Assembly (NCBI GenBank): GCA_035873215.1
Contig: JAYWMS010000393.1
Location: forward strand, 1-30,767
Direction: 5' to 3'
Length of the DNA: 30,767 nucleotides
Source: Nitrospirota bacterium
Lineage (GTDB): Bacteria > Nitrospirota > Nitrospiria > Nitrospirales > UBA8639
A program made the translations under genes and the position numbers. Below are positions 223 through 26,515 of this stretch, one piece after another; positions within the stretch are counted from its first letter, which is position 1; each line of letters begins with the position of its first letter. The notes under the pieces were generated by a model. That model searched no databases and was not told where the DNA came from. It saw only the letters and a list, made by a program, of their open reading frames with translations.

Positions 223-414
223 GGGAATGTTGAAAAAAGCCGCCAGCGGTGTTCTCGCCCTTTTGGCGTGCTCACGTACTGGGAGTACGCTCCGCGCCCC
301 AAAATGGCTGCGGCCTTGCTGGACGGACTTTTTTGACCATTCCCGGCGGCTTCTGAGATTGATTTTGTCTAGGGCCTGTATGGGCCATGTGAAAGAAATT
401 TTCAACAGGCCCTA
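223..414 (+). repeat. Modular MITE-like palindromic element, copy 1
   Basis: Starts GGGAATGTTGAAAAA, has an inner inverted end TTTTTGACCATTCCC (330-344) and an outer end TTTTCAACAGGCCCTA (to 414). The core is similar to 14956-15215 and 18358-18723. Confidence 0.8.
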
Positions 415-502
415 CTCTGATTATCTCTGTCTTTTTATACACTCTGGGGCTTGTCTTGTCGCCTTATTAATTCCTTGTAACTCTAACAGATAGGTCTTTA
501 TT

Positions 503-1000
503 GTGATCGAAAGTGATGATTTTGTTCAGGCGCTGCAGGATATCGGGTTTGATTTATTTACGGGTGTTCCAGATACGATTCTTGGCGGAATTATTGCCAC
601 ATTGAGCGATCGGCAGCTCTATACTCCAGCCGTGCGTGAAGATGAAGCCGCTGCGATGGCAGCTGGGGCTTTTTTAGGAGGGAAAACTCCTGCCGTATTG
701 ATGCAGAACTCAGGGTTGGGGAATGCACTCAATGTTTTGATCTCGCTGCACTTGATCTATCGGATCCCGTCTTTGCTGATTGTGTCCTGGCGTGGGTTTG
801 AGGGAAAAGATGCGCCGGAGCATCTCGTCATGGGACAGACGATGCCTCAGTTGCTCGACTTGGTCAAAATTCCGCATCGCACATTGTCAAAGGACACGAT
901 GGTGGAGGACCTGAAGTGGACGGCACACACATTCAGGGAACAACGCATTCCTGTCGCGTTGTTATTGAAAAAGGGAATCGTCAAAACGGTACAACCATAA
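503..1000 (+). CDS. Phosphonopyruvate/sulfopyruvate decarboxylase alpha subunit (Ppd/ComD-like, TPP enzyme N-terminal PYR domain)
   Basis: Motifs FTGVPD, REDEA and LMQNSGLGN are typical of ComD/Ppd alpha domains. Confidence 0.85.
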   Translation: MIESDDFVQALQDIGFDLFTGVPDTILGGIIATLSDRQLYTPAVREDEAAAMAAGAFLGGKTPAVLMQNSGLGNALNVLISLHLIYRIPSLLIVSWRGFEGKDAPEHLVMGQTMPQLLDLVKIPHRTLSKDTMVEDLKWTAHTFREQRIPVALLLKKGIVKTVQP

Positions 1001-1002
1001 TA

Positions 1003-1083
1003 CGTGAACCGTAAATCGTAAGCCGTGAAACGACACATCGAAAATTCGGTTCTGACGTTTCGGATTACGGATGACTGGTCACG
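1003..1083. repeat. Inverted pair of degenerate heptamer tandem arrays (CGTRANN x4 ... reverse complement x4)
   Basis: Left arm CGTGAAC CGTAAAT CGTAAGC CGTGAAA (1003-1030). Right arm CGTTTCG GATTACG GATGACT GGTCACG (1056-1083). Confidence 0.55.
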
Positions 1084-1155
1084 ATTCATCACCTTGGAAG
1101 GATATATCAGTGAACGTCCATCTACTAGCGGGAATCCAATTGAGAGTAGGGAAAC

Positions 1156-1749
1156 ATGATGAGACCTGAAGAGGGGGTGATGCAAAGCCGGGCGCAGGCC
1201 ATGGCGGCGCTGCTTGATCAATTAACCGATCACCCGGTGATCGTTTGCAATGGGTTTCCGTCACGGGAAGCACAGAAGATCAACGATCGACCCGGGAATT
1301 TCTACATGATTGGGTCCATGGGCGTGACCGCGTCCATCGGATTGGGATTAGCGCTGGCTAAGCCCGATCAAAAAGTTGTGGTGTTTGATGGAGACGGGAA
1401 TGTGCTGATGGGGATGGGGACGCTTGCCACGATCGGGGCCTTGAAACCCAAGAATCTCATTCATGTCGTTTTTGATAACGAGGTGTATGGGACAACCGGC
1501 AATCAGCCAACCTATTCTCGGTTGGTTCGCTTGAATCATATGGCGAAGTCTGCAGGCTATGTAAATGTGGAGCGGGTGTGGGAACGGGAAGACATCGTGT
1601 ACGAATTCAAGGATATGTTAAAGCAAGATGGACCAAGCTTTTTGTTAATTAAAGTCAATGAACAGATTGAGGATGCTGATCGTGTGGCTCTGGATCCTGC
1701 TGATATCACGTCGAGGTTTAAAGCCGCCGTTGAATCTGCTTCATCATGA
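1156..1749 (+). CDS. Phosphonopyruvate/sulfopyruvate decarboxylase beta subunit (TPP-binding, ComE-like)
   Basis: TPP/Mg motif GDGNVLMGMG...DNEVYGTTGNQPT and FYMIGSMG. Confidence 0.85.
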   Translation: MMRPEEGVMQSRAQAMAALLDQLTDHPVIVCNGFPSREAQKINDRPGNFYMIGSMGVTASIGLGLALAKPDQKVVVFDGDGNVLMGMGTLATIGALKPKNLIHVVFDNEVYGTTGNQPTYSRLVRLNHMAKSAGYVNVERVWEREDIVYEFKDMLKQDGPSFLLIKVNEQIEDADRVALDPADITSRFKAAVESASS

Positions 1750-1802
1750 ATAACCTGATACTTCTTAATAGTGGTTGTACCTGAAAGGAAAATAGGTCTC
1801 TG

Positions 1803-2897
1803 ATGATACTCCTCAATCCAGGTCCCGTGAATGTTTCGGAGCGCGTTCGGAACGCATTGACGATGCAGGATATTTGTCATCGGGAATCCGAATGTGCGGA
1901 TCTCATGGCCAATATTCAGGACAAACTCCTGCGGGCTTTTGTGCCTGGTGCGGAATCGGACTACGTGGCGATTTTATTAACGGGCTCCGGGACGGCGGCG
2001 GTTGAGGCGACGATTCTCTCAGCGTTGCCTATGGGTAAGCGCTTCATCGTGATCAATAACGGGGTCTATGGCCAGCGGATTTCCTTGATGGTGGCCTCGC
2101 AGCGCCTGGGGACGTCTGAAATCAAGGCGGAATGGCATACTCGCCCCGATCCTGAAAAAGTTCGGTTGATTCTACAACAGCACAAGGAAGCCTATGCTGT
2201 TGCGATGGTCCATCATGAGACCACCTTGGGCCTCATCAATCCTGTAGAAGAAATCGCGAAGATCGTGGATGGCTTCAATCGAGTATTTATCGTGGATTCG
2301 GTGAGCGGATTGGCCGGCGAATCAATTGATATCGCCAAATCACACATGTATCTGGTGGCTGGCACGGCGGGAAAGTGTATTCAAGGCTTTCCTGGAGTCT
2401 CGTTTGTGCTGGCTCGCAAAGGCTACATGGACAAAATGTTGAAATTCCCCAAACGGTCCTGTTATCTGAACCTGGCGAATTACTATCAAGCGCAACAGCA
2501 AGGGAGCGTGCCGTTCACACCGGCGGTGCAAGTGTATTCCGCGTTTCATGAGGCGTTGACGGAGTTGCTGGAAGAAGGCGTGAATAATCGTATCCAACGT
2601 TATGCCCGTGGGGCAAAAGTGATTCGCGAAGGTATGGCAAGTTTGGGGGTTCAGGCTGTGTTGCCCGCAGAGGTACAATCCAATTCTTTGACGGCCTTTT
2701 ACCTGCCGGATGGGGTGTCGTACCAGAATCTGCATGATCAACTTAAAGCACGTGAGTTTGTCATCTATGCAGGTCAAGATCATTTAGAGTCCAAGATTTT
2801 CCGGGTGGCTAATATGGGCAATCTGGAAGAGAAAGATTTCCAAGCCTTCCTCTCAGCATTCGAAGAGGTCTTGCAAGGGGCACCTGCTCAAACATGA
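1803..2897 (+). CDS. Class V PLP aminotransferase, 2-aminoethylphosphonate transaminase (PhnW/AepZ-like)
   Basis: LNPGPV, GSGTAAVE, HHETTLG, DSVS, and the PLP lysine in GTAGKCIQGFPG. Confidence 0.85.
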   Translation: MILLNPGPVNVSERVRNALTMQDICHRESECADLMANIQDKLLRAFVPGAESDYVAILLTGSGTAAVEATILSALPMGKRFIVINNGVYGQRISLMVASQRLGTSEIKAEWHTRPDPEKVRLILQQHKEAYAVAMVHHETTLGLINPVEEIAKIVDGFNRVFIVDSVSGLAGESIDIAKSHMYLVAGTAGKCIQGFPGVSFVLARKGYMDKMLKFPKRSCYLNLANYYQAQQQGSVPFTPAVQVYSAFHEALTELLEEGVNNRIQRYARGAKVIREGMASLGVQAVLPAEVQSNSLTAFYLPDGVSYQNLHDQLKAREFVIYAGQDHLESKIFRVANMGNLEEKDFQAFLSAFEEVLQGAPAQT

Positions 2898-3625
2898 ATG
2901 CCGTGATTCTGGCTGCCGGCGTGGGGACGCGATTACATTCCCTTACCCAGCATCGCCCCAAATGTTTGATTGAACTTGGTGGACGATCGTTGCTGGCTCG
3001 GTATTTTGACGCCTTGGCTAAGGTGGCTATCCGGCACATTGCCATCATTGTTGGATACAAACACGAAATGATCCGCGAGGCGGTAGGGACGTTTTCTGGT
3101 TCACATTCTGTACAATTCATCCTGAATGAAGATTATCGAAGGGGGAGTGTCGGATCATTGTGGCGGGCCCGGGAAATGTTGGATGATGATGCCCTCATTA
3201 TGGATGCTGACGTGCTGTTTCATCAGGCGATTCTCGACCGGCTTGTACAGTCGGCCCATCCCAATGCGTTACTGATGGATGAAACCGTCCAACAAACGAC
3301 CGAAGAGTGCATGGTAGTGGTCCGGAATAACCGGGTTGTGGCTTTGACCAAGCGTATGCCCACGACCTATGATGTGGTGGGTGAGGGTGTCGGGTTTCTT
3401 AAGGTGGCTAAGGCTGATGGGCCGAAACTTATCCAGGCGGTAGAAGGGCGAATCAATTGCGGTCAGCTGGATATGGATTATGAAGATGCTTTGGAGGAAT
3501 TTTTTCGGTCGACGGAAGTCGGTTACGAAACGATAGGTGGTTTTCCCTGGGTTGAAATCGACTTTCCGGAGGATGTACAACGTGCGCAAAATGACGTGTT
3601 GCCCAAGTTGCATCAGCATGTTTAG
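2894..3625 (+). CDS. LicC/PntC-family cytidylyltransferase (phosphocholine/phosphonate CMP transferase)
   Basis: ILAAGVGTRL...PKCL signature, DAD motif and WVEIDFPED C-terminus. ATGA overlap with the upstream stop. Confidence 0.85.
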   Translation: MNAVILAAGVGTRLHSLTQHRPKCLIELGGRSLLARYFDALAKVAIRHIAIIVGYKHEMIREAVGTFSGSHSVQFILNEDYRRGSVGSLWRAREMLDDDALIMDADVLFHQAILDRLVQSAHPNALLMDETVQQTTEECMVVVRNNRVVALTKRMPTTYDVVGEGVGFLKVAKADGPKLIQAVEGRINCGQLDMDYEDALEEFFRSTEVGYETIGGFPWVEIDFPEDVQRAQNDVLPKLHQHV

Positions 3626-3680
3626 ATAATGGAAGCCTACAGCTTGTTAGAAACCTAAAACATTCTTCTTAGATCAGGTT

Positions 3681-5150
3681 ATGGACGGAACTCTTCACAA
3701 ATCGGAAGTTGGCACACTCGATACCGCGATTCTCCTGGCTTCTTCAGGTGTTTTTGATATTGGGGTGAATACTGAAACGCCTACGGTTGGCGCATTGACC
3801 CGTATTGGTGGGTTGACCCTATTTCAGCGTACGGTTTTTACCTTACAACGTGGCGGGATTTCACAAATTTTCGCGCTCGTCGGAGATGAAGAAGCAGAAT
3901 TGCGGTCTCTGATTCATGCGGACGATCGCGTACAAGCTGTGATTCGATGGTTGCCGACACGAGAATTTCCTCCATCGGACCCGCAAACTTGGGAAACTCT
4001 GGCTAGCGAAGTCAAAAGCTCCTGTTTAATCCTCGGGTGCCATATGGTGTTTTCTCCTGCGCTCGTTGAATCGATCCGCGAAGAGTCGCGTGATGGCCGG
4101 GTGGTCGTTGCAATCGGTCGGCCCGGAGAGCCGGGATGGACGGGAAACCCTGGGGTGTTGATGCGAGCCGATGCCTCTTCAACAGGGGTGTCACACCGCA
4201 TTGTGTTTCACGATAAACTTGGTCGACCGCATGCCGCTTCGCAAGAATCCGGAGAAGGGTTAGCCCCTGCGGTAGACTTGGTCGCGTTACCTTTTAGGCT
4301 GATGGGCATATCCGGCGCCTGGAATACACCTGAAACCGGTCCCATCCGATTGGCCCTGGAGCAGGCAGCTGCAGAAGGTGTTGTTCAAACCGTGTCGGCT
4401 TCTACCCATGGCTACGTGGATGTGCGTGGTAATAATGGTGCGAGCCGGGCTGAGCAGATGCTGTTTAAGTCGTTTCAAACGGTGAAGGGCAGTCTTGATG
4501 GTGTCATCGACCGATTTGTCAATCGCAAGTTTTCGGCTCTCTTTACTCGTGGGTTCATTCGCCTTGGCCTTTCTCCAAATACGATCACCATTCTTTCGAT
4601 GATGATAGGGTTGGCTGGCGCAGCTTGTTTTGCGACCGGCTCCTACCAGATCGGCATTGTCGGGGCCCTACTCTTTCAATTGGCGGTCATCATTGATTGC
4701 TGTGACGGTGAAGTTGCCCGACTCACCTTTGCAGAATCACCATTTGGCCAAGAACTTGATATCATTGCAGACAATATTGTTCATATGGCGATTTTTGCCG
4801 GAGTGGCCTGGGGTTCGTATCTGACAGGTCCATGGGCGCAGACGCATTGGCCCCTACTACTGGGCGCTATTGCGATCTTGGCCAACGGATTTTCCCTGTG
4901 GTGTGTGAATGTGGTGCGTCATATGAAAGGCAACCCGCTTCGTTGGAGTCGACTGAACGTGTGGCAACGAAAGCGATTGGAGTTTATTTTGGGGAATGTC
5001 GCGAACCGTGATTTTTCGGTTGTGGTATTACTGTTTGCCTGCGTCGGCATCTTGCCGTGGTTTCTTTGGTTGGGAGCGGTAGGCACAAGTTTTTTTGCAC
5101 TTTTCATGGCCTGGATTTTACGTCGAGCTCTTCTTCCCCGTTCTGCATAG
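3681..5150 (+). CDS. CDP-alcohol phosphatidyltransferase with a degenerate N-terminal nucleotidyltransferase-like domain
   Basis: DGEVARLTFAESPFGQELDIIAD matches D-G-x2-A-R-x8-G-x3-D-x3-D exactly. The C-terminal half is hydrophobic and multi-TM. The N-terminus is NTase-like (AILLASSG...IGGLTLFQR). Confidence 0.85.
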   Translation: MDGTLHKSEVGTLDTAILLASSGVFDIGVNTETPTVGALTRIGGLTLFQRTVFTLQRGGISQIFALVGDEEAELRSLIHADDRVQAVIRWLPTREFPPSDPQTWETLASEVKSSCLILGCHMVFSPALVESIREESRDGRVVVAIGRPGEPGWTGNPGVLMRADASSTGVSHRIVFHDKLGRPHAASQESGEGLAPAVDLVALPFRLMGISGAWNTPETGPIRLALEQAAAEGVVQTVSASTHGYVDVRGNNGASRAEQMLFKSFQTVKGSLDGVIDRFVNRKFSALFTRGFIRLGLSPNTITILSMMIGLAGAACFATGSYQIGIVGALLFQLAVIIDCCDGEVARLTFAESPFGQELDIIADNIVHMAIFAGVAWGSYLTGPWAQTHWPLLLGAIAILANGFSLWCVNVVRHMKGNPLRWSRLNVWQRKRLEFILGNVANRDFSVVVLLFACVGILPWFLWLGAVGTSFFALFMAWILRRALLPRSA

Positions 5151-5154
5151 CCCA

Positions 5155-6162
5155 GTGATCCGACTGGTATTTCTCATCATTGGTTTTCTCGCCCTCGTCG
5201 GTCTCGTTTGGCATATCGGACCTTCGCAGATATTCCTCGCGGTTGAACAACTCAGTTCTCTGGCGATTTTCGTCATCTTCCTCACCATGGTGCCGGTTTA
5301 TGGCCTTGAAGCCTATGGATGGCAACTCACTCTGGGCTCACTGACAACGCGTGTCGGATTTCTTCGGTTGTTCGCCGTCCGGATGGCCGGAGAAGCGATT
5401 AATATGACGACCCCCACCGGATATGTCGGTGGTGAGCCCATGAAAGCCTATCTCCTTCAACAGTACGGTGTGGATTTAGTTGATGGGCTGGCTTCGGTGG
5501 TCACTGCCAAGACCACGTTAGTATTAGCCCAAATCTTGTTTATGTTGATGGGTATGGGTTTGACGGTGTGGATACTAGGCAGCTCGGATTATAACCTATT
5601 AGCTGCCCTCGTCAGTGTGGGGATGTTGGCGCTGGGGCTCTTTCTTTTGTTTGCGGTCCAGCGGTACGGCATTGGTGCCGGTTTATTGCGTCTCTTGCGT
5701 GCGATCAAGATTCGGCTTGCTTTCCTGGAAGCACGAGAGGCCAAACTTCTGGAGTTGGATGAGACCATTCAAAAGTTCTATCGAGAACGGCATGCTACGT
5801 TTTTGTTTGCGGTCGGGGTGTTTTTTCTTGGATGGCTGGCTGAGGCCTTAGAAGTGTATGCCATTCTGTATTTCCTGGATGTTCAGGTTGACCTTCTGTC
5901 TTCCTTGGCTATTGCGGCGTTGGCGGTGCTGATTAAGGGTAGTGTTTTTTTTATCCCCGGGAGTCTAGGCGCACAAGAGGGAGGCTACCTGCTTTTGTTG
6001 TTGGCATTTGGCTATGACGATGTCACCGGGATTACCTTTGCCCTGTTGCGTCGATTGCGGGAGATTATTTGGATTGTTGTGGGTTTAGTGTTCCTTGCGC
6101 TTTTGAAGGATAAGAAAAAGTTGCCTCCGGCGGATACACCAATGCCGGTTCATGCAGAATGA
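5155..6162 (+). CDS. Flippase-like lysylphosphatidylglycerol synthase TM-region (UPF0104) membrane protein
   Basis: Multi-TM protein with TPTGYVGGEPMKAYLL and PGSLGAQEGG motifs. The in-frame GTG at 5155, just after the upstream stop, is preferred over the ORF-track start at 5095. Confidence 0.75.
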   Translation: MIRLVFLIIGFLALVGLVWHIGPSQIFLAVEQLSSLAIFVIFLTMVPVYGLEAYGWQLTLGSLTTRVGFLRLFAVRMAGEAINMTTPTGYVGGEPMKAYLLQQYGVDLVDGLASVVTAKTTLVLAQILFMLMGMGLTVWILGSSDYNLLAALVSVGMLALGLFLLFAVQRYGIGAGLLRLLRAIKIRLAFLEAREAKLLELDETIQKFYRERHATFLFAVGVFFLGWLAEALEVYAILYFLDVQVDLLSSLAIAALAVLIKGSVFFIPGSLGAQEGGYLLLLLAFGYDDVTGITFALLRRLREIIWIVVGLVFLALLKDKKKLPPADTPMPVHAE

Positions 6163-6253
6163 GTCTGTTGAGACTGAAAACAGATTCGTGAAGCAAGAAA
6201 CATGAGGAGTTGGGGCTGGGCTAGAGAGGAAAAGTGGAGGGTACTACATGCTA

Positions 6254-7270
6254 CTACAGGTCTCGATTGACCATGTAATCCGCGACAACGGCGAGTGATC
6301 TTCGTGCCGTGGAGTCTTCAAAAGAGTCCAATGTGAGAAGGGCCGAATCGATGTATTCTTGAGATCTGGTCATGGTGTAATCCAAAGACCCATGACATTC
6401 CATCATGTTGGTGATTTCTAGCAGTTCTCCTTCTCCCAATCCTCCCGCTTCAATTTTCTGAAGGATTTCCTGCCTTTTTTCATAAGAGGAGGATTGCAAC
6501 AGGTGCAGCAAGGGTAGTGTCACCATGCCTTGCATGAAGTCCTGGCCTAGTGTCTTCCCCAATCGTGTTCGGTTGGCCATGTAGTCCAATCGGTCATCCG
6601 CCAATTGAAAGGCAATCCCAAGATACATCCCAAATTGATAGAGGGCTTTCTGTTGTGTGGCTGTGGCGCCACCGATAATCGCCCCGACCTTGCATGCGGC
6701 TGCTACGAGCGCTCCAGTTTTGTATTCGATAATCTGCAAATAGTCTGTTTCGTTTTGAACGGGCTTTCGATTCGCGCACAGCTGAAGAATTTCGCCTTCA
6801 GCCATCTTGCGACAGGCGACAGATAGCACATCGTTGATGTCATGATTCTGAAAGGCCACAATTTCTTGCATGGCCCGGGAGTACAGATAGTCACCAATCA
6901 GAATGCTGGTGTGATTTCCCCAGATTCGCCTGGCTGTGTCACGACCTCGTCGCAAATCCGCTTCATCTAAGACATCGTCATGGAGAAGGGTTGCAGTGTG
7001 AATGAATTCGATAAGACTGCCGAGTCCAAACGCTCCCTGTGGATCAATGCCTCCCAGCCGGCTACAGAGAATGAGAAGGAGTGGGCGAATACGCTTGCCA
7101 CCCCCAGTTAGGATATGGGTGGCGATTTCGTTGATCAGCGGGATGGGGGAGTCAAGATGCTGTTGAATCTGCGCTTCTATTTCGCGCAAATCTTCACGGT
7201 ACATACTCCATACATCTTCCATCGTAAGGGAAGCCATGGAGCCTTGAACAACGGGAGGGCCTTTAGCCAT
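6254..7270 (-). CDS. ispB: Long-chain polyprenyl diphosphate synthase (IspB/HepT-like)
   Basis: GGKRIRP, first DDxxD (HDDVLD) followed by RRG, KTG, and second motif DDRLD. A small Ala at -5 from the first DDxxD points to a long-chain product. The start may be a few codons later. Confidence 0.8.
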   Translation of the reverse strand: MAKGPPVVQGSMASLTMEDVWSMYREDLREIEAQIQQHLDSPIPLINEIATHILTGGGKRIRPLLLILCSRLGGIDPQGAFGLGSLIEFIHTATLLHDDVLDEADLRRGRDTARRIWGNHTSILIGDYLYSRAMQEIVAFQNHDINDVLSVACRKMAEGEILQLCANRKPVQNETDYLQIIEYKTGALVAAACKVGAIIGGATATQQKALYQFGMYLGIAFQLADDRLDYMANRTRLGKTLGQDFMQGMVTLPLLHLLQSSSYEKRQEILQKIEAGGLGEGELLEITNMMECHGSLDYTMTRSQEYIDSALLTLDSFEDSTARRSLAVVADYMVNRDL

Positions 7271-7370
7271 CGGGGGATAGTAGGTGAGGGTCTAGTGAAT
7301 GTCAAGGATTGGGGAGGGGATATGACTCGATCGAGGGAGGCGCATAAAACGTAGATTACGAGCGCTTATC

Positions 7371-7400
7371 TTGACACCCTTAAGGGGCTTCAAGTAAATT
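7371..7400 (+). promoter_or_regulatory. Candidate sigma70 promoter of gltBD
   Basis: Perfect TTGACA (7371-7376), an 18-nt spacer containing the palindrome CCCTTAAGGG, and TAAATT (7395-7400). Confidence 0.5.
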
Positions 7401-7525
7401 TAAAAGTCACCCTGCCTACCTATCCGTGCTCTGATCATGTCACCATAATAGAGAGGTTTTGCAGGCAATGAAATGCCGCGGCCACCCTGTATGGCTGCCG
7501 GGTTTATCTCCCTATTCTTGATAAA

Positions 7526-10500: not shown

Positions 10501-12100
10501 ATTCTCGACTCCGGGTGTGGGTTTGATTTCCCCGCCGCCCCATCATGACATTTATTCGATTGAGGACTTGGCTCAGCTTATTTTTGACCTGAAAAACTCC
10601 AATCCTGAAGCGGATGTCTCCGTGAAGTTGGTCTCCGAGGTTGGCGTAGGAACGGTCGCGGCCGGGGTATCGAAAGCGCATGCCGATAAGGTCCTGATTA
10701 GTGGTGATTCGGGCGGAACCGGAGCTTCACCCCTTTCGTCCATCAAATATGCCGGCATTCCGTGGGAAATTGGCTTGGCTGAAACGCATCAGACACTTGT
10801 GCTTAATGATCTTCGAGGCCGGATCAGAGTCGAGACTGACGGGCAAATGAAAACTGGGAAGGATGTGGTGGTCGCCGCATTGCTGGGTGCGGAAGAATTT
10901 GGTTTTTCTACAGCCCCGTTGATTGTTGAAGGCTGCATTATGATGCGGAAGTGCCATCTGAACACCTGTCCGGTCGGCGTGGCCACACAAGACCCTGAAC
11001 TTCGCAAACGATTTACCGGGCAACCTGATCACGTAGTGAATTTCTTCTTTTTTGTCGCCGAGGAAGTTCGGCAATTCATGTCGAAACTGGGCTTCAGAAA
11101 ATTCACCGACATGATTGGGCGAGTCGATAAACTTAAGGTCCAAAAAGCAATGGATCATTGGAAGGCAAAGGGTTTGGATTTGTCTCCTTTATTATGGAAA
11201 CCAGAGGTTGAACCTCATGTAAAAACATATTGTGTCGATCGCCAAGACCATGGCTTAGACAAAGTGTTGGACAACAAACTTGTCCAACTATGCCAACCGG
11301 CGATTGAGCGAGGGGAATGTATTTCTCTAGACCTTCCGATTCACAACACCGACCGAACGACGGGTACCATTCTATCTAGTCACATTGCACGGAAGTACAA
11401 AGAGGATGGACTTCCGCCAGATACGATTACCATCAACTTTACCGGTTCAGCTGGGCAGTCTTTCGGTGCATTTGTGTCTCGAGGGATTACCTTGAAGCTC
11501 GAAGGGGAGTCGAATGATTATCTAGGCAAGGGTTTGTCAGGCGGAAAAATCATTGTCACACCCCCAAAAGGGTGTACGTTTAAGCCAGAAGAAACCATTT
11601 TGATCGGGAATACCTCGCTGTATGGAGCGACTGGTGGGGAGTGCTATTTCTACGGCACGGCCGGCGAGCGCTTTGCCGTGAGAAACAGTGGTGTTCGAGC
11701 TGTCATCGAGGGTACTGGCGATCATTGTTGTGAATATATGACCGGTGGCGTAGTGGTTGTGTTGGGGCGAACCGGTCGGAATTTTGCCGCGGGAATGTCA
11801 GGTGGCGAGGCCTATGTCCTGAATGAGGATGGGAAATTTGAGTCGCGCTGTAATCGGGGCATGGTCGAGTTAGAAAAAGTTGCTGATCCACAAGATATAC
11901 AAACCTTGCGAGCGATGATTGAAATGCATTTGCAATACACAGGTAGCCAAAAAGCCAAGATGATCTTGGATTCGTGGGCGAGCAAGCTGCCAAAATTTGT
12001 GAAGGTGATGCCGGTGGATTACAAGCGAGTGTTGGCTGAACGGAAAGCGGCAGCGGCCAAGCAAGCGAGTAAGGGTTCAGAGATGGTGGCCCATGGCTGA
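7526..12100 (+). CDS. gltB: Glutamate synthase large subunit
   Basis: N-terminal nucleophile [33 protein letters not shown], 3Fe-4S motif [12 protein letters not shown] and C-terminal GXGXG repeats. The true start may be ATG 7541 or 7550. Confidence 0.98.
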
Positions 12101-13529
12101 TCCGAGAGGGTTTGTAAAATATGCACGGGAAGGCCCCAAGCGTCGCCCGGTTGAACTACGAGTGTTGGATTGGAAAGAGTTGTATCAACCCTTTCCTGAG
12201 GAAAAGCTCCGTAATCAGGGTGCGCGATGTATGGATTGCGGGGTTCCCTTTTGTCAGAGCAACATGGGCTGCCCGGTCGTCAATTTAATCCCTGAATGGA
12301 ATGACCTGGTCCATCGTGGCCGATGGAAGGATGCTCTCAAGGCTCTCCATGCGACAAACAATTTTCCAGAATTCACTGGCCGGTTGTGCCCTGCCCCCTG
12401 TGAATCAGCTTGTGTACTCGGCATCAATAGCGACCCTGTATCCATCCGCGTGATTGAATGGAACATCATCGACCGAGGGTTTGATGAAGGGTGGATTGAC
12501 CCGATTCTTCCTGTATCGAAAACAGGAAAGACGGTCGCTGTGATCGGGTCAGGACCTGCGGGGTTGGCTGCAGCACAACAACTGGCTCGGGCTGGGCATA
12601 CAGTCACGCTGTATGAAAAAGCGGATCGCATCGGCGGCTTGCTTCGATACGGTATTCCTGATTTTAAGATGGAAAAATGGGTGATCGATCGACGCCTTGA
12701 TCAAATGAAAGCCGAGGGGGTCCGATTCGAAACCAACGTGAATGTGGGTGTTGATATCACGGCGGAAGCCTTGCTGAGCCAATTTGATGCCGTCTGTTTA
12801 ACCTTGGGCGCCGAGGAAGCCCGTGATCTCCCGGTTCCCGGACGGGAATTACACGGGGTGCATTTTGCCATGGAGTATCTTGTCCAGCAAAATAAAACCA
12901 ATGCCGGGAATAAGCTTTCCGAAGGGCAGATTACGGCAAAAGGAAAACGTGTGGTGATCATTGGCGGTGGGGACACAGGTTCCGATTGTTTGGGTACGGC
13001 TCATCGTCAAGGTTGCACCGAAGTGCATCAATTTGAATTATTACCCGAACCGCCGCCCCAGCGAGCGACGTCGACCCCCTGGCCGCTGTGGCCGATGCAA
13101 CTTCGATCGTCGCATGCACATGAAGAAGGATGCGATCGGGAATGGAGTGTATCGACAACCAAATTCACGGGAGTAAACGGGCAGGTGACCCAGCTGCATG
13201 GACATCAAGTAAAGTTTGAGCAAGGCAGGTTCTCCCCAATACCCAATACTGAGTTTTCGTTGGATGTGGATCTGGTGCTCCTGGCCATGGGGTTCACCGG
13301 CCCTGTGAAGAATGGACTGCTCGATAGTCTTGGTGTGACATACGATCCCCGTGGGAATGTGGCTGTCGATGAGCATTATATGACCAATATTGATGGTGTG
13401 TTTGCTGCCGGAGATACGAAGCGCGGCGCTTCCTTGATCGTATGGGCGATTGCGGAGGGTCGACGAGCGGCTACGGCCGTCGATGCCTATCTGCTGTCTG
13501 GAAAACGTGTTTCAGCCTCGCACTCGTAA
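12093..13529 (+). CDS. gltD: Glutamate synthase small subunit
   Basis: CMDCGVPFC and [12 protein letters not shown] Fe-S clusters, GSGPAGL FAD motif, GGGDTGSDC and AGD...GASL. Overlaps the gltB stop. Confidence 0.97.
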
Positions 13530-13654
13530 TCGCAACAGTTCGATTCATTCATCTCTGCTTTTGTTTTCATTTCTCCCTTCTTGATTCTTCTTTGATGTTG
13601 AATTTCTTCAGGCTAACCGTTCAATCTAAGCACCGCAATTGCAAAGCTGCTCTC

Positions 13655-13760
13655 CCCTTCATAGTTCGACAGGCTCAGTACGAACTGAGGGGCTAGCTGC
13701 TACTCGTTAGGTGAGAGTCCGTTCGCTCTGAGCCTCCAAGGCTTCGCGGCAGTCGAAGGG
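13655..13760. repeat. REP-like palindromic pair between convergent genes
   Basis: Arm TTCGACAGGCTCAGTACGAAC (13665-13685) is complementary to GTTCGCTCTGAGCC...GTCGAA (13721-13757), whose unit is interrupted by about 17 nt. Related units occur at 15106-15130, 18374-18421 and 18601-18622. Confidence 0.65.
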
Positions 13761-13935
13761 TTCTGGGATGTCCCCCTCTTGTTTTTTGTCCAACGGTTTA
13801 TGGAATTTGATCAATCCAAAACATGGAGTGTCTTGGCCACAGGAAAAAAATAGTTGGGGGCATTTCGGGGGGCGACTGATTTTTGGAACCAGCTCTTACT
13901 CACGAAAGGAAAGTGCAATCAGAAACAGCAATCGG

Positions 13936-14898
13936 TCATTTGGCCTTTTTTTCTGGGCCCTTGAGAATGTGTTCAATGGCTTGAATGAGACGTCCTTCAA
14001 TCTCCGAGATCTCTTTGGGGCCTACTTCGAGGAGCTTCCCTCCACCACCCAGCTTTTCATAGAAGGCCTTCACTCTCAAGGTGGTTATCGTGGCGGTCGT
14101 GGCTTCCAGTACCACGACATACTGGTTTCGGAACCCAGGCAGTTCAATAGACTTTGAAATCGAGGTTTTTCGTTCGGTGATGAAAAACGCTCGTTGATCG
14201 GTTGCCATGTTACCCAGGAGAGCATATCCGTGTTGCGACAGGGCCTGTGTGGTGGCAGACACGGCGGCTCGCAAGGCAGACGTAAGCAGTTGAGATTTGG
14301 CGTTCTTGATATCAGTCTTCAGTGAGTGTCGGAATATGTCCCGTTGTCGGCGAAGCCAATCATTATCGCGTTTGAGTTTCTGTTTCTCTTGATTCAGTAT
14401 CTGTTTCTCTTGATTCAGTTTCGCCTTCTCTTTGGTTAATCGCGCAGCTTTTAGGGTGAGTTGTTGATTATCGTTGGTAAGGGTGTGGCCGGATTCTTCG
14501 ATGCTTTCCAGTTGCTGGGTGAAAGTACGTTCTTTTTCTCTCAGCTCTTGACTGAGTCGATTGATTTGTTCTTGTAAGACGCGATTCCCTTCTTCCAGCG
14601 TCTTCAGCATGGAATCTTTTTTGATGGCTTGTTTGGTGAGTTCTTCGTTTTCTTTCAACAAGGGCGTGTTGTCGGGAGGGCATCCCAGCAGGAACACGCT
14701 GGCTGTGATCAACAGAATGGAGGGCAGCGATGAATAAACCTGACGAAAAAAATGGAAGAATGCTTGACCAGATGTGATATGTAGGAGCGGGTTATTCCCT
14801 TGGTTCACGAGATGCCTTGAATGCACGGTTTCAACGATCAAAATGTAAGGTGCAGATAATTGGTTGCAGATTGTATGCACCTCAATCGAGTAATGCAA
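13936..14898 (-). CDS. Hypothetical coiled-coil lipoprotein
   Basis: Hydrophobic stretch ending in the lipobox LLGC, then about 110 aa of heptad coiled coil and a globular C-terminal domain. The real start is probably downstream of 14898 and is uncertain. Confidence 0.65.
   Translation of the reverse strand: MHYSIEVHTICNQLSAPYILIVETVHSRHLVNQGNNPLLHITSGQAFFHFFRQVYSSLPSILLITASVFLLGCPPDNTPLLKENEELTKQAIKKDSMLKTLEEGNRVLQEQINRLSQELREKERTFTQQLESIEESGHTLTNDNQQLTLKAARLTKEKAKLNQEKQILNQEKQKLKRDNDWLRRQRDIFRHSLKTDIKNAKSQLLTSALRAAVSATTQALSQHGYALLGNMATDQRAFFITERKTSISKSIELPGFRNQYVVVLEATTATITTLRVKAFYEKLGGGGKLLEVGPKEISEIEGRLIQAIEHILKGPEKKAK
14379..14419. repeat. 21-bp-period tandem duplication encoding one coiled-coil heptad
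   Basis: TCTGTTTCTCTTGATTCAGT occurs at 14379-14398 and 14400-14419 and encodes LNQEKQI LNQEKQK. Confidence 0.9.
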
Positions 14899-14955
14899 AT
14901 GAGGTACTCACTGTGCCGAGGTTCATTGACCGGGCAATCTGAGGAAAGGTAATGT

Positions 14956-15215
14956 GGGAATGTTGAAAAAAGTCGCCAGCGGCGTTCTCGCCAGTTTACC
15001 GTGCTCACGGACTGTGAGTACGCTCCGCGCGTCAAACTGGCTGCAGCCTTGCCCGTGGAAAAAGGCGGCTAGGCGCCCTTGGGTTTGGGCGGGTGATATA
15101 ACGAACCCTTCGGAAAGACTCAGGGCATGCTTTTTTGACCATTCCCGTCAGCTGCTGATATCGATTTCCCCCGGGAAATTTTTTTGGCCATGTGAGAGAA
15201 ATATTCAACATTCCC
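14956..15215 (+). repeat. Modular MITE-like palindromic element, copy 2
   Basis: Perfect 12-bp terminal inverted repeat GGGAATGTTGAA (14956) / TTCAACATTCCC (15204-15215), inner end TTTTTGACCATTCCC (to 15146), and the shared core and tail of copy 1. Confidence 0.85.
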
Positions 15216-15233
15216 CACAGAGGAAATCAGCGA

Positions 15234-15872
15234 ATGCCTGACCTGATCCGGAAAACGTTTCCCGTTCCACCGTTGGGATGTAATTGTTCGATTCTCGGTG
15301 ATCCTGAGACGAAACAGGGGATGGTTGTTGACCCTGGTGGAAACGCTGATCTGATTCTTCAGGAAGTATCGGCGTTGGGCTTGAGCATCAAAGCCATCAT
15401 TCATACACATGCCCATTTTGACCACTTCTTGGCCTCAGGCGCCATGAAGAAGGCAACCGATGCTCCGCTCTGTCTCCATCCTGATGATCGGGAGCTTTGG
15501 GATATGCTCGAGGTGCAGTGCCGATTGTTTGGTGTGCCTTTTGTCCCAGCACCCGAACCGGACCATTGGCTTCGTGATGAGGAGGTGCTCACGATTGGGA
15601 ATGTTAAGGGACAAGTACTTCATACCCCTGGCCATACGCCTGGTTCGTTATGCTTCTTATTTGAATCGGAAAAATTGTTATTGTCGGGGGATACGTTGTT
15701 TCGCGGCAGCATCGGGAGAACCGATTTATGGGGCGGTGATTCAGGGGCTATCGAGCGGTCTATTCGGGAACGTTTGTATTCTCTGGATGCCTCAACCCGG
15801 GTCGTGACCGGACATGGTCCCGAGACGCAAATCGGGTTCGAACGGGCCAATAACGCATTCTTTTCGGACTGA
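15234..15872 (+). CDS. MBL-fold metallo-hydrolase (glyoxalase II-like)
   Basis: HTHAHFDH (HxHxDH), HTPGHTPG and GDTLF...GRTD. The ATG at 15234 with upstream AGAGGA is preferred over 15192, which lies inside the repeat. Confidence 0.9.
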   Translation: MPDLIRKTFPVPPLGCNCSILGDPETKQGMVVDPGGNADLILQEVSALGLSIKAIIHTHAHFDHFLASGAMKKATDAPLCLHPDDRELWDMLEVQCRLFGVPFVPAPEPDHWLRDEEVLTIGNVKGQVLHTPGHTPGSLCFLFESEKLLLSGDTLFRGSIGRTDLWGGDSGAIERSIRERLYSLDASTRVVTGHGPETQIGFERANNAFFSD

Positions 15873-16158
15873 TATTCCTCGGTGATGGTGGAAAAGAAAA
15901 ACATCGGGCTGAATCGGGATTCGAGTAGTAGCCACGCGGGCGCTATCTGTTTGATTTCCATTATGTTTTGTGACTCGAAACTGATCCAGAATCCATCTTG
16001 CGTCCTGATTGCGCTTATGGTATAAGGGTCCATTCGTGATGGGACAGCATGTCGTTATTTGTCGAAACGTAGGTGTAGATTACTGCAGAATGGCCTTGAG
16101 GTTCTTTAACGAGGACTTTTCTATTACTAACGCTTTTTTTCTGTTGAGGAGGTAGGCA

Positions 16159-16653
16159 ATGCACAAGGTGCTTCTATCCGTCCTTTTTAGTTTAATTCTT
16201 ATTGCGGCTGGGTCTTCGGTCGCATTGGCTTTACAGTCCGGTGGGGTCGAGTTTGGGGATCTGGCAACCGGTTCAGTCGTTGGTCAACCATTTACTGCGT
16301 TAAATGTTGACCTTGAATACACCGCCTTGATGCTTGGTGGGAAGAAAGCCTGGTATCCTGGAACTGCGATTCTTGATCTTAGAAACGCAGGAACTGGAGC
16401 GCGGCCGATGTCCCCTGTCTTAATCAAAGTCACCAATACTTTGGATAGTGACCATGGGTTTGACATGTCTGCGGATTCACCGTTCGCGGCCCCAACTTCC
16501 ATGCATATCAAGATCGTGGTAAAGGCTGGAGAAACCAAGTATATTGGGATCCCCCTGAGCGACCTGACGTATGTCACTGCCCCTGGTAGTTTGAAGGTCA
16601 AATGTCAATTGCATAAGGGTCACCTTGGTTCGAATCTTCTGATCTTTAAGTAA
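16159..16653 (+). CDS. Secreted cupredoxin-fold protein, nitrosocyanin-like
   Basis: Sec signal (ALA), TNTLDSDHGF, VKAGETKYI and CQLHKGHLG. RBS GAGGAGG. Confidence 0.7.
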   Translation: MHKVLLSVLFSLILIAAGSSVALALQSGGVEFGDLATGSVVGQPFTALNVDLEYTALMLGGKKAWYPGTAILDLRNAGTGARPMSPVLIKVTNTLDSDHGFDMSADSPFAAPTSMHIKIVVKAGETKYIGIPLSDLTYVTAPGSLKVKCQLHKGHLGSNLLIFK

Positions 16654-16689
16654 GGATCAGGGTCAACTCAGTTTTTTGAGTGTGAACAA

Positions 16690-16726
16690 AAAAAGCCCCG
16701 TTCCCTACCTGGGAACGGGGCTTTTT
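16690..16726. terminator. Bidirectional intrinsic terminator
   Basis: A-tract, 11-bp stem GCCCCGTTCCC/GGGAACGGGGC, 5-nt loop and T-tract, lying between convergent genes. Confidence 0.9.
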
Positions 16727-16744
16727 CTTTCGTCTTCTTATGGC

Positions 16745-17086
16745 TTACACTTCCTCATCTTTTCCGCAATCGACTTTCGAATTTAGCGGTATATGTTGAG
16801 CCCCAAGGATTTTTCCATCCATAATGATAAGGAGGTAGCGGTTTTCAATCGACGGGCCGTTGCTTGTATTCCTGACAAAGGCATTGAGATCCACGATCAT
16901 TTCTTTTTTCGTCTCAGTCTGGGCATTGTTAATGACCCAGAAATAGTGCATGGCCTTCGGGTACAGTTTGGCGATAAACCGATCAATGACAGCGGGGACT
17001 TCGGGTGCGGCAGCTTGAACGGGTGTGGCCAGCGTGGCCGTTAAGGCCAAAGTGGTCAGGATTTGTGTTGGGTTGATTGTTATCAT
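16745..17086 (-). CDS. Small secreted hypothetical protein
   Basis: GGAGG RBS before the ATG at 17086, signal peptide (LTTLALTATLATPVQA) and a stop next to the terminator. Confidence 0.7.
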   Translation of the reverse strand: MITINPTQILTTLALTATLATPVQAAAPEVPAVIDRFIAKLYPKAMHYFWVINNAQTETKKEMIVDLNAFVRNTSNGPSIENRYLLIIMDGKILGAQHIPLNSKVDCGKDEEV

Positions 17087-17434
17087 GGCAGCCTCCCTTT
17101 GGAGTGATGTCAAATTATAACTCCGATTGTTGTCCTATCATGTTATTATCGGATACATGCTCATTATATTTAGCTGTCAATTGGTATCATACCAGGATTG
17201 TTAGAAAGGGGAAGGGTTATACGCTGATGTGGTGAGTTGGTTTGTGATGCCAATATTTAACCGTATATATAATATGTAAAGGGAAAAGTGGTCTGGGTTC
17301 TCGTGTCTCCGGGGATCAAGGCCCTTTCTATTTTTTGAAGAGTAGCATCATGAACCATTGGGCATTAAATCAACGAATACATATGAAGTTTGGGGAGCCA
17401 GGATGAGCCATCATCCAGGTGTTCAATCTTTTCA

Positions 17435-17935
17435 ATGTCGAAAACAAAGGTTCCAATTCTGAAGAAGTCAGGGAATTCAACGAGAATAGTATTCCTTGTT
17501 GTCATGGCGCTTCTGCTTGTGTCAGGGGCCATGTTATTTAATACTCCCCATCAAACCGAAGTTTTTCAGATTAATTTTCCTCATGGTGTGGCGCTCCAGG
17601 GAGAAGTCGCGAATACCCCCGAGAAACTCTTGTTCGGATTGGCTTTTCGTGAGCGGTTACGACCGGATGGAGCCCTGCTTCTGATATTTGATGAGTCGGG
17701 ACCGCATACCGTGTGGACGAAAGCGTTTCAAATACCGGTTGATTTGATCTGGGTCGACGAAAGTAAGCATATCGTTCATCTTGTCCGAGATGCAGAGCCA
17801 TGCCATGAGGACAAGTGTCCACGCTTTGGACCACCTCCGGAACATGCTCGGTACATTATTGAAACGAATGCCGGGTTCATTCGGGGAGCTGATGTTCAGA
17901 TTGGTCATGAATTGACCTTTGCTCTTCATATGTAG
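17435..17935 (+). CDS. DUF192-family membrane-anchored protein
   Basis: N-terminal TM, EVANTP...GLAFR, IPVDLIWVD, PC...CP and YIIETNAG, all following the DUF192 pattern. Start uncertain (17390 or 17435). Confidence 0.75.
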   Translation: MSKTKVPILKKSGNSTRIVFLVVMALLLVSGAMLFNTPHQTEVFQINFPHGVALQGEVANTPEKLLFGLAFRERLRPDGALLLIFDESGPHTVWTKAFQIPVDLIWVDESKHIVHLVRDAEPCHEDKCPRFGPPPEHARYIIETNAGFIRGADVQIGHELTFALHM

Positions 17936-18008
17936 CGGCGGTGTGACCTCAAGCCCACTTTCAGATGCAGTAGGGTTGATGAGATAGGATAAGAGGTTCC
18001 GCGTTTAA

Positions 18009-18356
18009 ATGATGAATATGCCAACATTTCCTTTAGAAGATTTCGTGCTCGTGGCTAAAGTCGAGGATGTTCCAGATGGCAAGGGCAAGGTTGTGAAAGC
18101 CAAAGGAAAGCAGATTGCTCTTTTTCGGGTGAAGGAAGCGTTTTATGCCATCAATAATGTCTGTCCTCATCAGGGCGCCTCACTTGCAAAGGGGCGATTG
18201 AAGCGGTATGTAGTGTCTTGCCCGTTGCACGATCTACAATTTGATATTCGAAGTGGATTTCAGACCGATGGTGGCGGCTGCCGTGTCGCCGGGTATGATG
18301 TGCACGTTGAAAATGGGAATGTGTACGTCAAGCCGAAAGCCCGCAGTTTTATCTAG
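18009..18356 (+). CDS. Rieske [2Fe-2S] ferredoxin (NirD-like fold)
   Basis: CPHQG and CPLH Rieske ligand motifs in a 115-aa protein. Confidence 0.9.
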   Translation: MMNMPTFPLEDFVLVAKVEDVPDGKGKVVKAKGKQIALFRVKEAFYAINNVCPHQGASLAKGRLKRYVVSCPLHDLQFDIRSGFQTDGGGCRVAGYDVHVENGNVYVKPKARSFI

Positions 18357-18357
18357 T

Positions 18358-18723
18358 GGGGGGTGTTGAAAAAGCATGTCCTGAGCCCTTCGGCCTTGCT
18401 CAGGATAAACTCCGTCGAAGGTTCCGCCAGCGGAGTTCTCGCTCTTTTGTCGCCTTCAGGCTCACAGACTGGTTGCTCTTCGCGACGTTCGCGCTTACGT
18501 ACTGAATAGTATACTCCGCGCGGCAAAGAATCTGCGGCATTGCTAGTGTAAAAGGGCGTCTTGGCGCCCCTGGGTTTGGGCGGGTGAAATAGCGGGGACT
18601 TCCTTCGGCAAGGCTCAGGACAGGTTTTGAACCCCGCTCATAATCTCCAGCAGAAAATGAAATGGGTGCCGTGAGCCGGGCAAGGAAAATTTTTACGATA
18701 TTCGACAATTTTCAAATGGCTAG
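18358..18723 (+). repeat. Modular MITE-like element, copy 3, with nested REP-like insertions
   Basis: GGGTGTTGAAAAA left end, CCGCCAGCGG-GTTCTCGC core, a 29-bp block (18563-18591) 27/29 identical to 15072-15100, and CTAG at both flanks (18353-18356 and 18720-18723). The right boundary is approximate. Confidence 0.75.
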
Positions 18724-25517: not shown

Positions 25518-25594
25518 CACATGTGTTTGGAATTGCGTAGGGTCAGTTGCGACAATATTGTGAGACGGTAGACTCGATTGAGAAGGAGGGTTTC

Positions 25595-26515
25595 ATGAAG
25601 GTCCGGGTTTGTAGGTTGTTGATCAGTCTCTTGGTATGGCTGTGCAGCGTCTCATTCGCATGGCCGTATGAAGAAAGACAGGTGGTCAATGGAGGGACCA
25701 TAAAGGGGAAAGTTTTGATCACAGGGAATACGCCAAGGCCCATGGCCTTTAATTTGGTGACCATCCCGGACGCGGTTTACTGTGGCCGTATTTCCACGGG
25801 TACAGGATGGCGAATCGTGGAGGATTTTATCATTGGGTCGAATGGGAGCCTTAAGGATGTCGTGGTCATGCTCAAGGACGTCAAACAGGGAAAGCCCTTT
25901 GATTTGCCAAAGGTCAGAGTTGATGCGATGGATTGTGATTTTTTGCCCTTTATCAATGTCTTGCGCGACAAAGATGAGGTTACCGTGATCAATATGGATC
26001 CCGTGGAACATGACATCCAGGGCTATGAAACGGCTCGTGTTCGTGGAGCACGGATTCTATTCAATCGCCCTCTCCCTATGAATCCGTTTCATAAGGTCCT
26101 TGGACTGTTGAACAGCCACAAGCACATGGCTGGTAAACCCATGATTGAAAAAATTCATCTGCGTAAGGGACGAAATATCTTTGTCATGCAATGCGGGTTT
26201 CATCCCTACATGTTTTCCTGGGGTGTGGTGATCCACAATCCCTACTATTTCATCACCAAGGAAGATGGAAAATTTGAAATTTCTGATGTTCCCCCTGGAA
26301 ACTATATCTTGCAGGTTTGGCATGCCGGGATGAAAGAATACCTTGAGCGTCCTGTCACTGTGAAGCCGAAGGGGACTTTGTCAGAAAATTTTGTGTATGA
26401 GGCACCGAAGGGGCGACGGAGCGTCCATGAAATGATTGATAATACCCGATTTGGGTTGGAATTACTTGGAGAGGGTGTGGAAGTGATTCCATCACTGAGA
26501 CTCCAGAAACCTTAA
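25595..26515 (+). CDS. Secreted cupredoxin / carboxypeptidase-regulatory-like (transthyretin-fold) protein, paralogue 1
   Basis: AAGGAGG RBS before the ATG at 25595, signal peptide, GGTIKGKV, NMDPVEH...QCGFHPYM and GKFEISDVPPGNY.L.VWH. Confidence 0.8.
   Translation: MKVRVCRLLISLLVWLCSVSFAWPYEERQVVNGGTIKGKVLITGNTPRPMAFNLVTIPDAVYCGRISTGTGWRIVEDFIIGSNGSLKDVVVMLKDVKQGKPFDLPKVRVDAMDCDFLPFINVLRDKDEVTVINMDPVEHDIQGYETARVRGARILFNRPLPMNPFHKVLGLLNSHKHMAGKPMIEKIHLRKGRNIFVMQCGFHPYMFSWGVVIHNPYYFITKEDGKFEISDVPPGNYILQVWHAGMKEYLERPVTVKPKGTLSENFVYEAPKGRRSVHEMIDNTRFGLELLGEGVEVIPSLRLQKP

Follow-up and report, generated by a model that had tools for sequence, protein, structure and literature searches.

The 30,767-nt stretch of DNA analysed here (the window; contig JAYWMS010000393.1 of assembly GCA_035873215.1, from a marine-sediment Nitrospirota bacterium of the order Nitrospirales) carries three copies of an intergenic repeat that folds into a long hairpin. 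A sequence-only reading of the window had taken it for a three-copy element, a count that proved wrong, as both blastn and nhmmer found about 300 copies in the 2.72-Mb assembly. We conclude that the elements are MITEs (miniature inverted-repeat transposable elements), and we consider it probable that this family of about 300 copies has a fold that is selected in its spreading lineages and a hairpin tip that behaves as conserved cargo. As a MITE family it is ordinary biology, yet of practical weight, since it makes up about 1.8% of the genome and produces false small open reading frames.

A dispersed family of modular MITEs

By blastn, the family occupies about 296 places and 48 kb, or 1.8% of the 529-contig assembly, a metagenome-assembled genome that is 91% complete with 3.4% contamination; nhmmer returned about 300 copies, 152 of which are full length against copy 1. 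Many copies lie close to contig ends, and the family probably explains why the assembly is in 529 pieces. It was also found in 34 of the 41 genomes of the same order that were searched. The elements are noncoding, 122 to 330 nt long and dispersed over many contigs, beginning with GGGAATGTTGAAAAAAG and ending with ...ATATTCAACAGGCCC. Their core, module A, is a near-perfect palindrome of 122 nt that closes with an inner copy of the repeat (CTTTTTTGACCATTCCC); it is predicted to fold into a single rod on either strand (-59.3 versus -58.7 kcal/mol), and it stands alone in about 23 copies. The copies look modular because optional blocks are added to this core: a tail module C in about 97 copies, a module B inserted in the right arm in about 107 to 122, and two rarer arm modules that are seen in copy 3 of the window. 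The tip of the rod is the most conserved part of the family. As read from the sequence, TTTTTT comes right after the inner stem (model positions 17-106) on either strand, so that the rod looks like a very long two-way terminator, with a loop too long for a simple terminator scanner to score. A rho-independent terminator-like repeat such as SPRITE would have a G+C-rich stem with a U run directly behind it, at the 3' ends of genes. Additional sites combine the same left repeat (TGTTGAAAAAG) with CATGTCCTGAGCCCTTCGG-type arms (for example G000:C100:5182, C174:1941, C350:1845 and C395:2859); these fall outside the copies counted above, and the superfamily in this genome therefore exceeds our census.

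The sequence-only reading had opposed a structured RNA or single-stranded DNA element to inert MITE debris, a contrast that the termini of the elements do not bear out. The terminal inverted repeats, GGGAATGTTGAA... (5') and ...TTCAACAGGCCC (3'), have an inner copy ending in ...TTGACCATTCCC and are accompanied by a 5-bp target duplication. Of 150 full copies, 32 have the same 5 bp on both flanks and another 44 have flanks with one mismatch, as against 1 and 4 when the pairings were shuffled. The target logo is palindromic, CC|HTWAT|GG, the middle 5 bp being duplicated, and insertion recreates target-like junctions, which may explain the nesting of elements. Contigs from other metagenomes diverge from the window exactly at 222/223, 344, 412, 14956 and 15168. 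A MITE derived from the IS5 family would be expected to combine an IS5-type repeat with a YTAR/CTAG target and a duplication of 3-4 bp. The repeat here resembles that of the IS5-family pair MITEPsy1/ISPsy2, and a subfamily with CAGGATGTTGAA ends is located at CTAG/TTAG, in contrast to the main subfamily, which duplicates 5 bp.

An autonomous partner element would be expected to be bounded by ...TGTTGAAAAAAG / ...TGTTCAAAAAGTC with a 5-bp duplication. The sequence-only reading had suggested looking for a DDE or HUH transposase with matching ends, and neither was recovered: this genome has two DDE_Tnp_1 profile matches and no match to Y1_Tnp (PF01797), and the 26 DDE_Tnp_1 loci (IS4/IS5-type) of this genome and its relatives all have other ends, the nearest being GGGCAYCTCTAAAAAC. 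Pairs of inverted-repeat-like sites lying 0.5 to 5 kb apart were considered as candidate partners and rejected, as all of them were neighbouring MITEs or ordinary genes. A plasmid collection gave no blastn match to the family. Separately, the relative G016 carries a short palindromic element (L119:616-756, arms GGGCACCTCTAAAAACC / GGTTTGTAGAGGTGCCC 107 nt apart) with the ends of the full IS5-type elements L124 and L125 of relatives; it is a second MITE family, one whose partner is visible.

The copies in the window and their landmarks are as follows.

223-412, + strand: copy 1, made of module A at 223-344 (the 122-nt rod hairpin) and tail module C at 345-412
223-239, + strand: left terminal inverted repeat, GGGAATGTTGAAAAAAG
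257-308, + strand: helix 2, the core stem of the sequence-only reading, pairing 257-266 with 299-308; hypervariable yet compensated positions
268-295, + strand: tip motif GTGCTCACGTAC-N5-GTACGCTCCGC, comprising an apical stem of 5 bp, a loop that varies and an asymmetric internal loop, TCA / CTCC, that is conserved
14956-15214, + strand: copy 2, made of left A at 14956-15052, inserted module B at 15053-15129, right A at 15130-15146 and C at 15147-15214
18358-18636, + strand: copy 3, an extended module A with extra arm modules
18354-18356, + strand: stop codon TAG of a Rieske ferredoxin gene (18009-18356), one base upstream of the 5' end of copy 3 (18358)
156-185, + strand: promoter-like site TTGAGA-18-TATAAT, 11 of 12 positions, a consensus match only, outside the element

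All three loci proposed from the sequence were recovered, through repeat-finder alignments of copy 1 with copy 2 (222-319 versus 14955-15052, 88% identity over 98 nt) and of copy 2 with copy 3 (15017-15103 versus 18508-18594, 79% identity over 87 nt) and through the matching tails of copies 1 and 2 (328-365/15130-15167 and 383-415/15186-15218). The bounds were slightly refined for copies 1 and 2, to 223-412 and 14956-15214, whereas the 3' limit previously given to copy 3 was too far: that copy runs from 18358 to about 18636, and the remaining 18637-18723 (about 85 nt) is without a second copy in the genome and is probably ordinary spacer outside the element. In copy 1, the left repeat has two partners, an inner one at 328-344 (CTTTTTTGACCATTCCC) and an outer one at 401-412 (TTCAACAGGCCC), and the flanks, TGACT and TACTC, do not form an intact target duplication. 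The duplication is not intact in copy 2 either, the tip of which lies at 15001-15028. Copy 3 has a degenerate tip at about 18492-18519, and its arm modules recur across the genome, with 22 copies of the block at 18377-18423, 5 of that at 18454-18497 and about 122 of the B-type block at 18535-18618.

The stem pairs that had drawn attention to these loci lie exactly where they had been placed: GCCCTTTTGG (257-266) with CCAAAATGGC (299-308) in copy 1, with one mismatch; GCCAGTTT (14990-14997) with AAACTGGC (15034-15041) in copy 2, with none; and TTTGTCGC (18446-18453) with GCGGCAAA (18520-18527) in copy 3, with one T-G. They had been described as the same stem position in every copy, which is correct for the helix but not for the exact position, the stem of copy 3 lying a few positions deeper than the others. 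All three copies have the enclosed GTACT-loop-AGTAC hairpin, copy 2 having one mismatch in it and copy 3 two.

Covariation and probable decay of the hairpin

The proposal that structure rather than sequence is being kept was upheld. We aligned 73 copies (61 from this genome and 12 from other Nitrospirales) and compared them with 500 shuffles, a test that overstates significance in that the copies are related. Paired cells amounted to 93.0%, against 87.8 +/- 0.2% after shuffling; 20 pairs were changed on both sides, against 10.8 +/- 1.6, corresponding to 161 cells against 41.8; and the covariation score was 0.143 against 0.057. None of the 500 shuffles attained any of the observed values, and slid controls were at most 47% paired. 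Helix 2 contributes prominently, as 10 of its 14 pairs have changed on both sides (columns 39-87, for example, are UA in 29 copies, CG in 15 and GC in 7). In a larger set of 185 copies, 86.8% of the core cells were paired, compared with 79.9 +/- 0.27% when partners were shuffled (reached in 0 of 300 shuffles) and with 33 to 40% in slid registers.

Whether changes lie between subfamilies or are private to a copy bears on the level at which the fold is selected. Between the consensuses of four subfamilies, the pair differences comprise 19 compensated doubles, 2 uncompensated doubles and 9 single breaks. Within subfamilies, paired sites are not spared by singleton substitutions (1.8%, against 1.0% at unpaired sites), and where a private change strikes a Watson-Crick pair (59 cases), pairing is lost in 35, turns to G-T in 17 and survives through a change on the partner side in 7. 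Since private substitutions mostly break pairs, most inserted copies appear to be decaying. We infer that selection maintains the hairpin in lineages still transposing, that the hairpin decays after insertion, and that the fold is not that of a regulatory RNA maintained at each locus. Arm-to-arm correction within the palindrome could contribute to the pattern, weakly so because conserved mismatches and the asymmetric tip loop persist.

A shared hairpin tip and its orientation at stop codons

An exact-pattern scan for GTGCTCACGTAC-N5-GTACGCTCCGC, with one genome per species, recovered the tip at no fewer than 118 loci, whereas about 0.02 chance matches are expected for its 23 specified bases. 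Among the listed matches are Nitrospirales, many Rhizobiales (chiefly Mesorhizobium), Acidocella, Sphingosinicella, Paenibacillus, Listeria fleischmannii, Peptococcaceae, Alistipes and Kofleriaceae, so that the tip spans at least five phyla (Nitrospirota, Alphaproteobacteria, Bacillota, Bacteroidota and Myxococcota). Each lineage has it at the centre of a long palindrome, and these palindromes differ in their arms and ends. When up to 2 mismatches were allowed, single genomes gave the following counts, and a reversed-pattern control gave 0 in all five.

Mesorhizobium: 42 tip matches
Paenibacillus: 60 tip matches
Alistipes: 86 tip matches
Peptococcaceae: 18 tip matches
Listeria fleischmannii: 1 tip match

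The Paenibacillus elements have the ...TGTTCAAAAAGTC repeat in common, together with a 5-bp duplication (TTGTA, TTATA, TTAAA), while those of Alistipes end in an altogether different way (GGCTGCRCATATCGCACGCC) and also show covariation at the pair that closes the tip, TGC..GC versus TCC..GG. At several Rhizobiales loci (L006, L011, L032 and others), the conserved loop blocks next to the tip, GTTCTCG and CTGCG..CTT, stand on the opposite sides of it when compared with window positions 248-256 and 308-321, as though recombination between the arms had turned the tip around inside its palindrome.

The orientation of the elements relative to genes was examined with crude open reading frame calls made with the elements masked. 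The three window copies had been noted to face the same way as the gene downstream, which is true of them but not of the genome, where 56 elements share the direction of the downstream gene and 49 do not; as the genes downstream of the window copies are also unrelated, a leader function is not borne out. In tandem-gene contexts, 32 copies are co-oriented and 37 anti-oriented (p = 0.63). A bias does exist where the 5' end of the element abuts the stop codon of the upstream gene (28 cases, versus 3 for the 3' end), abutment being defined as an element end at most 3 nt from the stop codon that ends a co-oriented frame of 100 or more codons. For the A+C copies (n = 150), the 5' end abuts a stop in 17 cases and the 3' end in 2 (p = 0.0007), and frames that run on to a TGA inside the repeat number 9 and 2, respectively. 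For the A-only copies, whose ends are the same but for one base in the first 16, the counts are 11 and 1. Altogether, an intact 5' end is present in 200 copies, 48 of which abut a stop or end a frame at the TGA of the repeat, and copy 3 of the window, adjoining the TAG of the Rieske gene, is one instance.

The same bias was found in three of the four lineages tested. Rhizobiales gave about 35 versus 11 (n = 66), and in Alistipes a long co-oriented frame ends 48-55 nt before the tip, at the 5' boundary, in 19 of 42 copies, the anti-oriented equivalent on the 3' side being 0. Since the bias follows the orientation of the tip across elements with unrelated ends, it is more likely tied to the strand of the tip than to any transposase. 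A strand bias at stops is compatible with an effect that operates on RNA or is linked to transcription, and that concerns the 3' end of the upstream gene and not the downstream gene.

Our working model is that a cut-and-paste DDE transposase acting in trans, to which the inverted repeats and target duplications point, would move the elements into the palindromic target and thereby duplicate its middle 5 bp. Selection would keep the hairpin in lineages that are still spreading, most inserted copies being left to decay, and the tip would be a conserved cargo module, read strand-specifically and carried by high-copy palindromic repeats with unrelated ends. Within the mRNA 3' end of the abutted gene, tip and rod may act as a terminator, a stabiliser or a protein-binding hairpin, a proposal that we place somewhat short of an even chance; alternatively, sense-oriented copies may be the only ones tolerated at that position. 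More tentative still is the idea that the 28-nt tip (GUGCUCACGUAC-N5-GUACGCUCCGC) is an undescribed functional module, probably a protein or nuclease site common to bacteria, that MITEs have spread across at least five phyla and that acts in mRNA 3' ends behind stop codons, for instance in 3'-end formation or decay. If this were true, selection would act on the carriers in two capacities, as parasites and as portable 3'-end signals. If the bias reflects function, the tip would be a portable, widespread and unnamed mRNA 3'-end signal or protein-binding hairpin.

Several observations weigh against our interpretation. Regarding transposition, none of the three window copies has an intact target duplication, no clean empty site was recovered in reads from public runs or in contigs from other samples, a search of this genome (91% complete, in 529 contigs) turned up no autonomous element whose ends match, and the IS4/IS5-type elements of two complete relatives all have other ends. 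Regarding a role of the tip at the RNA level, the comparison of G-T with A-C mismatches gave no consistent strand signal (121 versus 199 overall, 17 versus 8 among private changes). One metatranscriptome does contain sequence of the family, which is not proof of transcription. As for the stop-codon bias, it is missing in Paenibacillus (8 versus 6) and confined to exact abutment, the counts 7-60 nt behind a stop being 22 and 18. Abutting copies are also slightly less paired, and their tips less conserved, than the remaining copies, so that there is no sign of stronger purifying selection on them.

The alternatives account for parts of this evidence. The explanation favoured by the sequence-only reading, a host-kept cis-regulatory RNA (a leader, riboswitch-like or stability element) controlling the downstream gene, drew on window copies that all face that gene, on a copy 1 set between a promoter-like site and an operon, on a copy 2 that ends 18 nt before an ATG, and on co-varying stems. 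It is already largely refuted and we hold it to be very improbable, given the even orientation (56 versus 49) and unrelated functions of the downstream genes, the roughly 300 copies with inverted repeats and target duplications, the private mutations that break pairs, and the lack of an Rfam match. Covariation could instead arise without selection, if template switching or arm-to-arm repair in a replicating palindrome copied changes from one arm to the other. Module A is indeed almost perfectly palindromic and folds equally well on either DNA strand, its seven private two-sided changes exceed the expectation for independent hits at a per-site rate of about 1.8%, and the variable positions are concentrated at few places in the stem. 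Set against this, the private changes are mostly uncompensated (35 breaking and 17 G-T versus 7), and efficient correction should erase the conserved mismatches (T-G at pair 47-74, G-G of the inverted repeat) and the asymmetry of the tip loop, all of which persist; we therefore think arm copying an unlikely explanation. That the repeat encodes a small protein, from an ATG in the left repeat that opens a frame through module A, has a negligible probability in our judgement. Open frames of 88 and 95 codons do overlap copies 1 and 2 (227-493 and 14954-15241), but the variation is paired across the arms and not biased toward third codon positions, module insertions and deletions shift the frame, and the elements occur in both orientations relative to genes; we rejected a coding role for the internal frames on the grounds of arm-paired variation and frame-shifting modules.

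Two further explanations concern the strandedness of the tip. The bias at stop codons may be a property of insertion, that is, of an oriented target choice coupled to transcription or to the stop context, and not of later selection or of RNA function. Its restriction to exact abutment, its absence 7-60 nt downstream and the unexceptional conservation of abutting copies are all as expected from such a mechanism, which nevertheless seems to us rather unlikely: the target logo is palindromic, the ends of the A-only copies differ by one base in the first 16, and the bias follows the orientation of the tip in three lineages with unrelated element ends. A REP/REPIN-like or IS200/IS605-type single-stranded DNA element, with a HUH (Y1) transposase that recognises the tip and whose strand specificity gives the bias, would agree with a conserved, strand-specific tip between variable arms, with the orientation-specific placement behind genes, and with the Y1_Tnp genes of relatives (17 in G016 and 6 in G010). 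Y1 enzymes do not make inverted repeats and 5-bp target duplications, though, and this genome has no Y1_Tnp match despite its roughly 300 copies; moreover, tandem contexts are balanced (32 versus 37), and one complete relative, with 14 copies forward and 26 reverse relative to replication, has no clean switch between replichores. We regard this explanation as highly improbable.

Known repeats, database matches and neighbouring genes

The family as such is a new family of a known kind, with precedents in bcr1, ERIC and Correia repeats. The bcr1 elements of the Bacillus cereus group are gene-less, about 155 bp long, flanked by 5-bp direct repeats and transcribed, and compensatory changes keep their RNA fold, which has decayed in many copies (reviewed in PMC3184786; Okstad 2004, Klevan 2007). 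They thus resemble the present family in being dispersed and gene-less, in their direct repeats, and in combining compensation with decay, but they form a two-stem cruciform instead of a single rod and are confined to one species group. MITEPsy1, a MITE of about 100 nt of Pseudomonas syringae, is mobilised in trans by the IS5-family element ISPsy2, with the inverted repeat GGAAGGTCTGAAAAAGCC and the target CTAG/YTAA (PMC3189936). Its repeat agrees with GGGAATGTTGAAAAAAGCC of our family at about 14 of 19 positions, and its target is apparently that of the CAGGATGTTGAA subfamily; it differs in its 4-bp duplication (5 bp in our main subfamily), its few copies and its known partner element, none having been found here.

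ERIC and Correia repeats are co-transcribed at the 3' ends of genes and alter mRNA stability (PMC3184786). Like our elements, ERIC/IRU of enterobacteria and Correia/NEMIS of Neisseria are imperfect palindromes of 100-160 bp with inverted repeats, often at gene 3' ends and with reported effects on stability or termination, but they duplicate TA, have no sequence in common with this family, and no cross-phylum tip has been reported for them. Compensatory substitutions in ERIC were reportedly described by Wilson and Sharp in 2006. BOX and BIME repeats share the use of optional blocks in a fixed order, but they are arrays of separate units without one enclosing pair of inverted repeats and a target duplication, BIMEs being REPs tied to RAYT enzymes. 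REP/REPIN sequences with their RAYT (Y1 HUH) enzymes also place hairpins of conserved structure and with a strand-specific head behind genes; they are much shorter, lack inverted repeats and target duplication, and are tied to Y1 enzymes, no gene for which was found in this genome.

The Rfam search suggested by the sequence-only reading matched no family. At the gathering score there was no match for the window or for 8 loci from other phyla, and at E values up to 10, the three window copies and a Mesorhizobium copy gave generic long-hairpin noise at chance level only. A literature search by sequence string found the tip in a single paper, among small-RNA reads that Thalassospira lucentensis gave at more than one locus (PMC6413936), and a search for Nitrospira and MITE returned nothing relevant. 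We found no description in the literature of a cross-phylum tip carried by elements with unrelated ends and oriented at stop codons. The tail module of one subfamily reads CAACTGATGAGGCCCGTCTTATCATGGG (for example at G000:C393:61-252, C234:2873-3064 and C432:857-1048) and contains CUGAUGAG, a box known from hammerhead ribozymes, the remainder of their core not being evident; the hammerhead-like CTGATGAG in this tail was rejected as a candidate, as the required GAAA does not follow.

The genes downstream of the three window copies are, in order, a thiamine pyrophosphate (TPP)-dependent enzyme heading a phosphonate-type operon, a metallo-beta-lactamase (MBL)-fold hydrolase and a chagasin-type inhibitor. 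Both landmarks that had been reported near these genes were confirmed, namely the promoter-like site at 156-185 upstream of copy 1 and the 18-nt interval between the end of copy 2 and the ATG at 15234. The operon at 503-6162 begins with a split TPP-dependent enzyme (N- and C-terminal TPP domains in two open reading frames) and a class-V aminotransferase, and it looks like a phosphonate pathway of the aminoethylphosphonate type. The two frames that open at an ATG within the left repeat and read through the element (227-493 and 14954-15241) are of a kind that is likely annotated as small hypothetical proteins across these genomes. Between convergent genes, a perfect 16-bp inverted repeat at 16690-16726 (AAAAAGCCCCGTTCCC / GGGAACGGGGCTTTTT), flanked by A and T runs, is predicted to be a textbook two-way intrinsic terminator. 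Finally, a 47-nt direct repeat with 81% identity (25854-25900 and 26779-26825) lies within two adjacent open reading frames of similar size, 25547-26515 and 26520-27434, which are probably tandem paralogues.

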